A stretch of 64,000 nt of DNA from a virus, in IMG/VR virus record IMGVR_UViG_3300009506_000004, positions 65,440 to 129,439 of that record. One strand, given 5' to 3'. Position numbers and translations under genes: made by a program. The first letter of the stretch is position 1. The number at the start of each line of letters is the position of its first letter. Under the pieces are notes generated by a model, which did no database searches, was not told where the DNA came from, and saw only the letters and a program-made list of their open reading frames with translations. Positions 53,108 through 53,587 of the stretch are shown here, in pieces.

Positions 53108-53587
53108 ATGTTAAGACGAGATCTTTTAAAATTTTTTGCTGCATTAGCTGTAGCACCAATATCTTCTTGTGTTAAGTCAGATGAGCCAAATGTACTAGAA
53201 GGCTCATGGGCTATGTTAGGTATGCAACATAGCCTGAAAAATGGGGATTTATTGTTTTCTACAGATAATACTGAATTATTAGTTAGACCAATTGATGGTA
53301 GTTTAACCTATACTAGCCGCATAGATATGGATGCTCTTCCTAAAACTAGGGGTGAATTAGGACTAGAACCAGAATTCAATGATATAATTGATTTTCATTT
53401 ATTGGTTGTAACAGAGAATTTAGATTTAGAAAAATTTAAGAAAATAAAAGAATCGCCCAAATTTAAGTTGACAACAAAAACAGATGGTCTATACTTCATA
53501 TTGAATGAAGCTTATTGGACTTTGATAAATCATAACAAGCAAGGTGATATGGAATCATTAGAAATAGAGGGTCTTGCAAAATATTAA
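53108..53587 (+). CDS. Tat-signal (lipo)protein resembling the tail tube protein
   Basis: MLRRDLLK plus ISSC lipobox-like Cys; VRPIDGSLTYT..L..RGEL vs tail tube VKMGDGNLVWT..L..RGNL. Confidence 0.65.
   Translation: MLRRDLLKFFAALAVAPISSCVKSDEPNVLEGSWAMLGMQHSLKNGDLLFSTDNTELLVRPIDGSLTYTSRIDMDALPKTRGELGLEPEFNDIIDFHLLVVTENLDLEKFKKIKESPKFKLTTKTDGLYFILNEAYWTLINHNKQGDMESLEIEGLAKY

Follow-up and report, generated by a model that had tools for sequence, protein, structure and literature searches.

The gene at positions 53108–53587 (plus strand) of a 64,000 nt stretch of viral DNA, hereafter called the window, encodes a 159 aa protein (P0001) in which a putative leader for the twin-arginine translocation (Tat) pathway precedes a domain with the predicted fold of phage tail-tube proteins. 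The window is the second half (positions 65440–129439) of the IMG/VR record IMGVR_UViG_3300009506_000004, which measures 129,439 bp, carries direct terminal repeats and is rated complete. P0001 is encoded within an operon on the plus strand that consists of many small genes and runs from approximately 46.4 kb onwards, with a phage-borne tatA gene 603 bases ahead of it in the same orientation. An earlier reading of the DNA by a model (the original prediction) had described the product as a Tat-exported lipoprotein resembling a minimal tail-tube subunit, and the N-terminus translated here, MLRRDLLKFFAALAVAPISSC, is identical to the one quoted there. The features of the locus are as follows:

53108–53587, plus strand: P0001 gene, putative Tat-signal protein of 159 aa with predicted tube fold, from the open reading frame (ORF), its translation and its homologues (stop codon included)
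53108–53170, plus strand: candidate leader (residues 1–21), read from the sequence as n-region MLRRDLLK, h-region FFAALAVAP and a lipobox-like I-S-S-C
53114–53119, plus strand: twin arginines of the n-region
53168–53170, plus strand: codon of Cys21, at the I-S-S-C end of the leader
53231–53584, plus strand: predicted tube/Hcp-fold domain, approximately residues 42–159 (residues 22–139 of the structure model), from AlphaFold2 (AF2), VIA-align and hhalign, the latter from residue 51/52
52335–52505, plus strand: phage tatA, 56 aa (PF02416, E = 2.1e-9, 36.9 bits with a cut-off of 21 bits)

The P0001 family and its leader

A phmmer search of 1.84 billion representative proteins (E ≤ 0.001) matched four proteins including P0001 itself, with P0005 (169 aa, E = 1.4e-6, 37% identity over residues 1–145) as the sole true relative. 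The remaining two were judged to be spurious matches and were dropped from the family, these being P0004 (5332 aa, a repeat match with no stretch listed) and P0006 (401 aa), in which seven repeats of an ...ILYSTD.GETW... unit match residues 31–57 of P0001. Scanning of JGI metagenome contigs with P0005 gave two further relatives with genomic context (loci L002 and L003), and a profile search of a 5.8-billion-protein set brought the family to six members: P0001, P0005, P0007 (the L003 gene), P0008 (the L002 gene), P0009 and P0010. They are 159–169 aa in length and share 21–36% identity with P0001. No relatives of P0001 were found by tblastn and blastn in 50,697 phage records or by scans of IMG/VR with the family alignments, none of 143 stretches was confirmed when 185,579 species genomes were scanned with the six-member profile (alignment A3), and a PDB sequence search with the family profile returned noise only (E = 0.35–1). 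The family is small and fast-evolving, yet real.

The n-region of Tat signals follows the consensus S/T-R-R-x-F-L-K, and all six family members match it almost perfectly with a leader starting M-[LI]-R-R-D-[FL]-L-K (L-R-R-D-L-L-K at residues 2–8 of P0001). Residues 1–10 are the best-conserved part of the protein, with a mean pairwise identity of 83%, compared to 40% for residues 11–21 and 36% for residues 48–159. The Tat-signal model TIGR01409 (cut-off 16.7 bits) scored P0008 (18.8) and P0010 (18.5) above its cut-off and P0005, P0007 and P0009 (13.7–15.8) below it, and PF10518 (TAT_signal, cut-off 22.7 bits) matched five of the six members at E ≤ 1 (best E = 9.8e-4). Within the family, P0001 makes the poorest Tat candidate, as it has Leu for Phe after RRD and the shortest h-region, was not matched by TIGR01409 and reached only 12.6 bits (E = 0.14) with PF10518, under the cut-off. 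Since its own scores are sub-threshold, the Tat reading rests on the family and on the genomic context. The features of P0001 in the ESM Atlas lie at 0.86–0.87 to clusters of Tat-signal proteins or lipoproteins, which we treat as leads only. The twin-arginine motif and lipobox-like cysteine reported in the original prediction are both present, the Tat leader that it described is retained by all members and found together with a phage tatA gene, and these sequence data make Tat export of P0001 probable.

A lipid anchor is a separate matter. Lipoboxes follow a loose pattern [LVI][ASTVI][GAS]-C, into which residues 18–21 of P0001 (I-S-S-C) fit, with the Pro at −4 and the Ser at −1 falling outside stricter patterns. 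Cys21 is the only cysteine of P0001, and none of the five relatives has a Cys at that position; the Cys13 of P0007, P0009 and P0010 lies within the h-region. The leaders of P0007 and P0010 end in A-H-A and that of P0009 in M-Q-A, all resembling signal peptidase I sites. The designation as a lipoprotein therefore holds as far as the lipobox-like I-S-S-C of P0001 is concerned, and does not extend to the five relatives, three of which end in A-H-A or Q-A. Because one member in six has the lipobox Cys, lipid anchoring is not a core property of the family; judged from the sequence, an anchor at Cys21 has about an even chance of being real and is at best a peculiarity of the P0001 copy. We infer that the common denominator of the family is a Tat-exported tube domain, either soluble or tethered.

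The sub-threshold scores of P0001 on the Tat models and the very small size of the family would also suit a decaying or neutral duplicate of a tube gene with a Tat-like N-terminus that arose by chance. This is exceedingly unlikely, as the frame has stayed open and the length has been kept in six members that differ as widely as stated above, the start of the leader is near-invariant, and tatA is found next to the gene in all three loci for which context is available (see below).

Relationship to the tail-tube proteins of the phage

The two proteins with which P0001 was compared are encoded on the other strand of the window:

21875–22603, minus strand: tail-tube (major tail) paralogue 1, 242 aa, from hhalign, the P0001-family hidden Markov model (HMM), gene position and ESM features
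21125–21862, minus strand: tail-tube (major tail) paralogue 2, 245 aa, from the alignment of tube relatives (A4), hhalign and the family HMM

Both genes are located directly before two small ORFs that are followed by the tape measure gene, which is the classical position for tail tubes. The tandem paralogues are 79% identical to each other. Neither protein matched a Pfam family or a PHROG at cut-off, with a weak match to a PHROG annotated as 'distal tail protein' (E = 1.4e-4, residues 4–114), and a PDB sequence search with the tube profile gave nothing. In the ESM Atlas their features fell close to clusters of which half the members are Phage_tail_2 (0.92) or Phage_tail_3 (0.89), again as leads only. 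They are taken to be tubes because of their gene position, these features and the fold result described below. Among 388 pattern-matched IMG/VR stretches, 371 were confirmed as members of the tube family, the best 80 of these being 56–80% identical. The relatives are 238 to 370 aa long, with an insert (approximately residues 20–95) that varies in length, and several relatives among the loci L007–L010 and L026–L028 pair a tube of ~241 aa with one of ~340 aa.

On its own, P0001 does not reveal a relationship to these proteins: BLASTP showed no likeness to either tube (E = 5.8 to 48), and the score against a profile of 25 tube relatives (15.9) was at noise level. The claim that P0001 by itself is demonstrably tube-like was therefore rejected, the link being seen at the family level only. 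Alignment of the six-member family (A3) to 27 tube relatives (A4) with hhalign gave a probability of 93.6% (E = 2.1e-7, score 52) over family columns 59–164 and tube columns 102–236, and a separate run gave 93.2% (E = 2.9e-7). The corresponding controls scored far lower, with a mean of 13.1 (sd 1.9, maximum 18.6) for 60 column shuffles and 14.9 for the reversed family, and leaving P0001 out of the family still gave a score of 51.1. The aligned region starts at residue 51/52 of P0001 and residue 99/102 of the tubes, past the insert, and covers the C-terminal ~135 residues of the tubes. Motif pairs had previously been matched by eye between P0001 and the tubes, and hhalign reproduced four of these five (VRPIDGSLTYT with VKMGDGNLVWT, RGEL with RGNL, DFHLLVV with DVTLDSV, and SLEIEG with TLSMTG), the exception being SLKNGDL with ELRDATI, which involves the N-terminal strand of the tubes.

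A search of all six frames of the phage genome with the family HMM found the P0001 gene itself (E = 2e-46) and otherwise only the two tube genes, at 21401–21556 (E = 8.2e-5) and 22154–22309 (E = 9e-4). Matches were also obtained in six of the seven related records searched, all in tube genes or in ORFs beside them. Five related complete genomes contained seven such matches (E = 4.5e-6 to 2.3e-4), five of which lie inside the tube gene as defined by tblastn; the other two are in neighbouring ORFs of 343 and 467 aa, which may be a longer second tube paralogue as in L007–L010. In the sixth complete genome (G007) there was a single match, in a candidate ORF of 264 aa.

Columns common to both families include the Gly of a D-G-x-[LF]-x-[WY]-T motif, an R-G-x-L motif and a late Gly. 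Compared to the tubes, the P0001 family is without the first ~19 residues, the insert (~20–95) and ~29 loop residues in the C-terminal half. P0001 is 12–20% identical to the tube fragments and has a pI of 4.8 (mature family proteins 4.5–5.3), with values of 4.1–4.2 for the tubes. Neither P0001 nor any other member matched a tail family of Pfam (such as PF06199 or PF08813), PHROG or NCBIfam at E ≤ 1. The hhalign and family HMM results bear out the proposed minimal relative of the phage's tail tubes, and we conclude that P0001 is very probably a strongly diverged, stripped-down paralogue of the tail tube of this phage.

For structure prediction, the mature part of P0001 was given to AF2 together with five relatives and 27 C-terminal fragments of tubes (33 rows), in which MAFFT had placed the shared motifs in register. 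The best model had a mean predicted local distance difference test (pLDDT) score of 82.5 and a predicted template modelling (pTM) score of 0.71, and the five models ranged from 78.4 to 82.5. It forms a beta-sandwich with one helix and a long hairpin, with strands at residues 34–42, 47–51, 56–59, 61–73, 90–102, 119–125, 128–145 and 148–157 and the helix at 107–115 (protein numbering); a loop of low confidence (74–89) is located at the tip of the hairpin. VIA-align was run against 48,161 representative chains, and among the best 50 rows listed all were tube-fold proteins or Hcp fusions except the top row, 4qxz_B, a hypothetical protein of S. aureus. Four chains had Z ≥ 8, and the listed rows had Z = 6.2–8.3 with 79–126 residues aligned over model residues 22–139, although values of 6–8 individually lie within the range that VIA-align calls common. 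The rows include Hcp1 (7.9), SPP1 gp17.1 (7.3) and lambda gpV (6.6), as well as the YSD1, NF5, R4C and gene transfer agent (GTA) tubes, tube initiators, Dit, the PVC and diffocin tubes and two Hcp fusion constructs. The list weighs as evidence because it is so uniform, and not because of single Z values. In BFVD there were three matches at E ≤ 0.001, one named Tail tube protein [Halogranum tailed virus 1] (E = 8.7e-4) and two nameless, and the named rows between E = 1.5e-3 and 7e-3 included the TP901-1 major tail protein and a Dit-like N-domain. Foldseek rows with a probability near 1 comprised Mu gp44, baseplate and tube chains of Pa193/E217, T5 pb6 and Hcp1.

Other results bearing on the fold are less favourable. 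Foldseek found no PDB match at E ≤ 0.001, and low-probability rows for spike proteins were interleaved among its high-probability rows. With only two family rows as input, AF2 gave an unusable model (pLDDT 40.8), in which the order of strands and helix resembles that of the later model, and the ESM Atlas has its own model of P0001 with a low pLDDT (0.34; structure TM ≤ 0.37). The fold test is also partly circular because 27 of the 33 alignment rows were tube fragments, so that what the model mostly demonstrates is a tube fold for the region shared with the tube family, onto which P0001 threads with high confidence. The predicted fold is nevertheless tube/Hcp-like and not unrelated to these proteins, and we accept such a fold for P0001 with considerable confidence from the model and the homology together, as distinct from an independent fold determination.

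The tubes belong to the late module on the minus strand of the window, of which the following genes were annotated:

39243–40952, minus strand: large terminase
37449–39230, minus strand: portal
33023–34399, minus strand: major head protein (phrog_283, E = 7e-51)
16223–19828, minus strand: tape measure protein, 1201 aa (best E = 2.2e-20; 16 PHROG families listed)

The tape measure protein matched phrog_991 and 13 other families annotated as tape measure, as well as two without an assigned function, and its gene fixes the position of the tail module. Seven large late ORFs (164 to 699 aa) are located between the head and tube genes at 23115–32647 (minus strand), and a PHROG search (E ≤ 0.001) gave nothing for these seven ORFs. 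The neck and tail-proximal genes of this lineage are thus largely without annotation.

The viral tatA gene, its neighbours and the host

Besides PF02416, the product of 52335–52505 matched TIGR01411 (E = 4e-11, under the cut-off of that model). In L002 the tatA ORF (9826–9999) and the family gene have 11 bases in common, or directly adjoin each other if translation of the latter starts at MLRRD, and in L003 the tatA ORF (284–490) lies 165 bases upstream, so tatA precedes the family gene in all three loci with context. The TatA sequences are 75–83% identical across these loci (75% between the window and L002, 83% between L002 and L003), despite a G+C content of 30–31% around the gene in the window, 45% in L002 and 52% in L003. 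At least six genes of the L002 contig (in 3411–7756 and 11884–15823) have counterparts in the part of the phage genome outside the window with 46–63% identity, for instance proteins of 369 and 380 aa (63%) and of 540 and 521 aa (48%), and one further pair is weaker (26%). By these sequence matches, the L002 contig belongs to the same broad phage lineage. Since tatA is conserved despite the spread in G+C and L002 shares other genes with this phage, the pair of tatA and the P0001 gene is best seen as an inherited module of the lineage and not as a recent capture. The P0001 and L002 proteins are only 21% identical, whereas the other genes common to both phages reach 46–63% and tatA 75%, and such fast divergence of the mature part fits an interface in a conflict.

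No tatC gene was seen beside tatA in the loci read (the window, L002 and L003), for which no tatC profile search was made. A tatA gene is present in one of five related complete genomes. In a species-genome scan with the phage tatA profile, the best 80 of 354 relatives comprised 79 from Planctomycetota and one with an actinobacterial name, and were up to 71% identical to the phage protein; because the phage gene itself supplied the patterns, the scan is biased to close relatives. The sequence relationship of TatA suggests that the host is probably a planctomycete, and thus a diderm cell with a periplasm. An archaeal host was considered for the low G+C content and dropped on the basis of the same 79 of 80 relatives.

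The conservation of the leader relative to a fast-evolving mature part raises the question of whether P0001 might instead act on the Tat machinery itself, by occupying or re-programming the translocase as a fast-folding and possibly oligomeric protein, or might remain in the cytoplasm as a decoy for tube-sensing defence. Tail-tube proteins are known to trigger some defence systems, such as DSR2, which lends the latter variant some appeal. We consider both very unlikely, as a phage that carries its own tatA, conserved to the degree given above, appears to boost export and not to block it, and a cytoplasmic protein needs no export leader.

The whole 129,439 bp genome contains 629 ORFs of at least 40 aa, three of which were picked by a pattern of two adjacent basic residues ahead of a hydrophobic stretch. 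Two of these three contain RR-x-[FL]-L-K, the P0001 gene and an ORF starting at 51049, and these flank tatA (~1.0 kb upstream for 51049 and 0.6 kb downstream for P0001); the third pattern match, at 52966, is a KRH membrane peptide. The second gene is:

51049–51294, plus strand: second putative Tat-signal gene, 81 aa (MKRRNFLK...), residues 54–80 of which copy residues 3–29 of the major head protein

This similarity, to the head protein encoded at 33023–34399, amounts to 59% over 27 aa in BLASTP (E = 8e-8 within the genome). Two copies of virion proteins thus flank a single tatA gene with leaders of the same type, and each keeps a part known for protein-protein contacts. This suggests another option, in which the Tat-tagged copies of tube and capsid N-arm serve as carriers that bind phage proteins without a signal and drag them to or through the translocase. 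The hitchhikers would be tube subunits, tape measure protein, chaperones or scaffold, and virion parts or assembly sites would thereby be brought to the membrane or into the periplasm. There is precedent for such transport, since Tat exports pre-formed complexes led by one signal-bearing subunit, as for the small and large subunits of hydrogenases and for DmsAB. Virion parts, however, have no known need outside the cytoplasm, and P0001 is encoded in an early or accessory operon on the strand opposite to the late genes. The family is furthermore absent from the six related complete genomes that do have a tube, which indicates that it is not part of core assembly, and a carrier function thus appears improbable.

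Between tatA and the P0001 gene there are two small hydrophobic ORFs on the plus strand, 52721–52873 (50 aa) and 52966–53103 (45 aa), which form a pair of paralogues with 33% identity over 43 aa (E = 1.7e-4). A scan of 50500–54500 gave 27 promoter-like sites, where 26.2 were expected, and zero terminators. As the two small membrane-protein genes adjoin a protein with a lipobox-like site, P0001 could be proposed to act in envelope remodelling or lysis, with a periplasmic or lipid-anchored tube fold that forms rings or binds wall components and so prepares phage release, in the manner of spanin lipoproteins. This is highly improbable given that the lipobox is not conserved and that no similarity to spanins was found in Pfam, PHROGs or NCBIfam.

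A probably exported tube domain and its possible function

The explanation that we favour, tentatively and with a little less than even confidence, is that P0001 is an exported mimic of the tail tube which is located in the envelope and acts in superinfection exclusion. P0001 would fold in the cytoplasm, behind the Tat leader that was placed before it in an early or accessory operon, and would be carried across the cytoplasmic membrane by a translocase based on the host TatC together with the planctomycete-type TatA of the phage. Export via Tat rather than Sec would be expected because a fast-folding structural domain presumably cannot use Sec, and the viral TatA may supplement the Tat subunit that is required in high copy number. 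P0001 would then probably be lipid-modified at Cys21 and tethered on the periplasmic side of the membrane, and its relatives would probably be released as soluble periplasmic proteins. The exported domain would mimic the tube and bind partners of tube subunits, the likeliest being the tape measure or tail-tip proteins of superinfecting kin phages, and genome entry would be blocked. The original prediction had similarly suggested that the protein could cap incoming tails, as a form of superinfection exclusion, or assemble into rings in the envelope, both of which are hypothetical.

The specific mechanism of exclusion, which is argued by analogy, is doubtful, and our confidence in it is low because the copy of the capsid N-arm better fits a general logic of virion mimicry. 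Along such lines, the viral TatA module may be dedicated to placing copies of virion contact surfaces (tube domain and capsid N-arm) in the periplasm as decoys directed against kin phages, which is likewise rather unlikely to be correct in this form.

Several observations weigh against the exported tube mimic. To the sub-threshold Tat scores of P0001, the lack of a lipobox Cys in its relatives and the reservations on the predicted fold given above must be added that an exported copy of the capsid N-arm is not obviously explained by binding to the tape measure protein, and that tatA also occurs without the P0001 family. The tatA profile identified three viral loci at which no RR-containing ORF lay within 4 kb on the tatA strand (the strand covered), and the family HMM gave tube-size ORFs or nothing on these three records, with no separate member.

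P0001 shares properties with several known systems. By prediction its fold is like that of the class of tubes and Hcp (SPP1 gp17.1, lambda gpV, T5 pb6, the TP901-1 major tail protein (MTP) and Hcp of type VI secretion systems (T6SS)), and it is closest to the 240–370 aa tubes of its own lineage, with which it shares the D-G-x-[LF]-x-[WY]-T and R-G-x-L motifs and the acidity. Unlike tubes, it has an export leader, is encoded in an early or accessory operon on the other strand, lacks the N-terminal strand and the insert, and is absent from most related phages. It is like Tat substrates in its RR-x-[FL]-L-K n-region, moderately hydrophobic h-region and an end with small residues or a lipobox-like motif. 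Tat-dependent lipoproteins are common in Streptomyces and haloarchaea, and a dedicated pair of TatA and cargo is known from Bacillus subtilis, where tatAd-tatCd lies beside phoD, similar to the tatA gene encoded beside P0001. In contrast to the usual Tat cargo, P0001 is free of cofactors and a copy of a structural protein of a virus, and its tatA is viral.

The closest functional parallel may be found in the exclusion lipoproteins Ltp and Llp, which are exported via Sec, processed by signal peptidase II (SPII) and have other folds; Llp, from phage T5, acts by blocking the FhuA receptor (see also PMC9586334). Their families are absent among the Pfam, PHROG and NCBIfam matches of P0001, which has a tube-like predicted fold and is not assigned to either, making this a functional analogy only. 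Ltp of Streptococcus phage TP-J34 is reported to be a lipoprotein that confers superinfection exclusion and targets the tape measure protein (PMC3952083, citing Bebeacua et al. 2013). Ltp and Llp are small proteins with a leader that are expressed early or from a prophage and anchored on the outside of the membrane, and P0001 would be similar to them in these respects. The tape measure protein of the incoming phage, on which Ltp acts, naturally pairs with tube subunits.

Phage-encoded Tat components were not mentioned in a 2026 review of Tat (PMC13673990) as far as covered by a search for phage and virus terms, and searches of the literature on phage TatA, tatA in viral genomes, superinfection exclusion and planctomycete phages gave no phage tatA combined with Tat-tagged copies of virion proteins. 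Likewise, a design like that of P0001 was not found in the titles and abstract openings of publications on tail tubes and twin-arginine transport. Neither the fold nor the Tat pathway is new in itself; what is unusual is a tail-tube domain as Tat cargo encoded together with a viral tatA gene.

The known role of tail-tube proteins is that of cytoplasmic components from which virions, pyocins and secretion machines are built. An exported tube domain accompanied by a viral TatA would, if true, be a new use of the tube fold and a novel way for a virus to interfere with an export pathway of its host. Comparison at the profile level between the accessory genes of a phage and its own structural genes can uncover such recycled parts of virions. 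Should the decoy reading be true, P0001 and the capsid N-arm copy would represent a new class of superinfection exclusion that is built from recycled structural proteins. If the exported mimic indeed blocks incoming tails, it would provide a natural probe for the roles of tape measure and tail-tip proteins in the periplasm, as well as a testable exclusion mechanism in phages of Planctomycetota, a group almost without experimental data.

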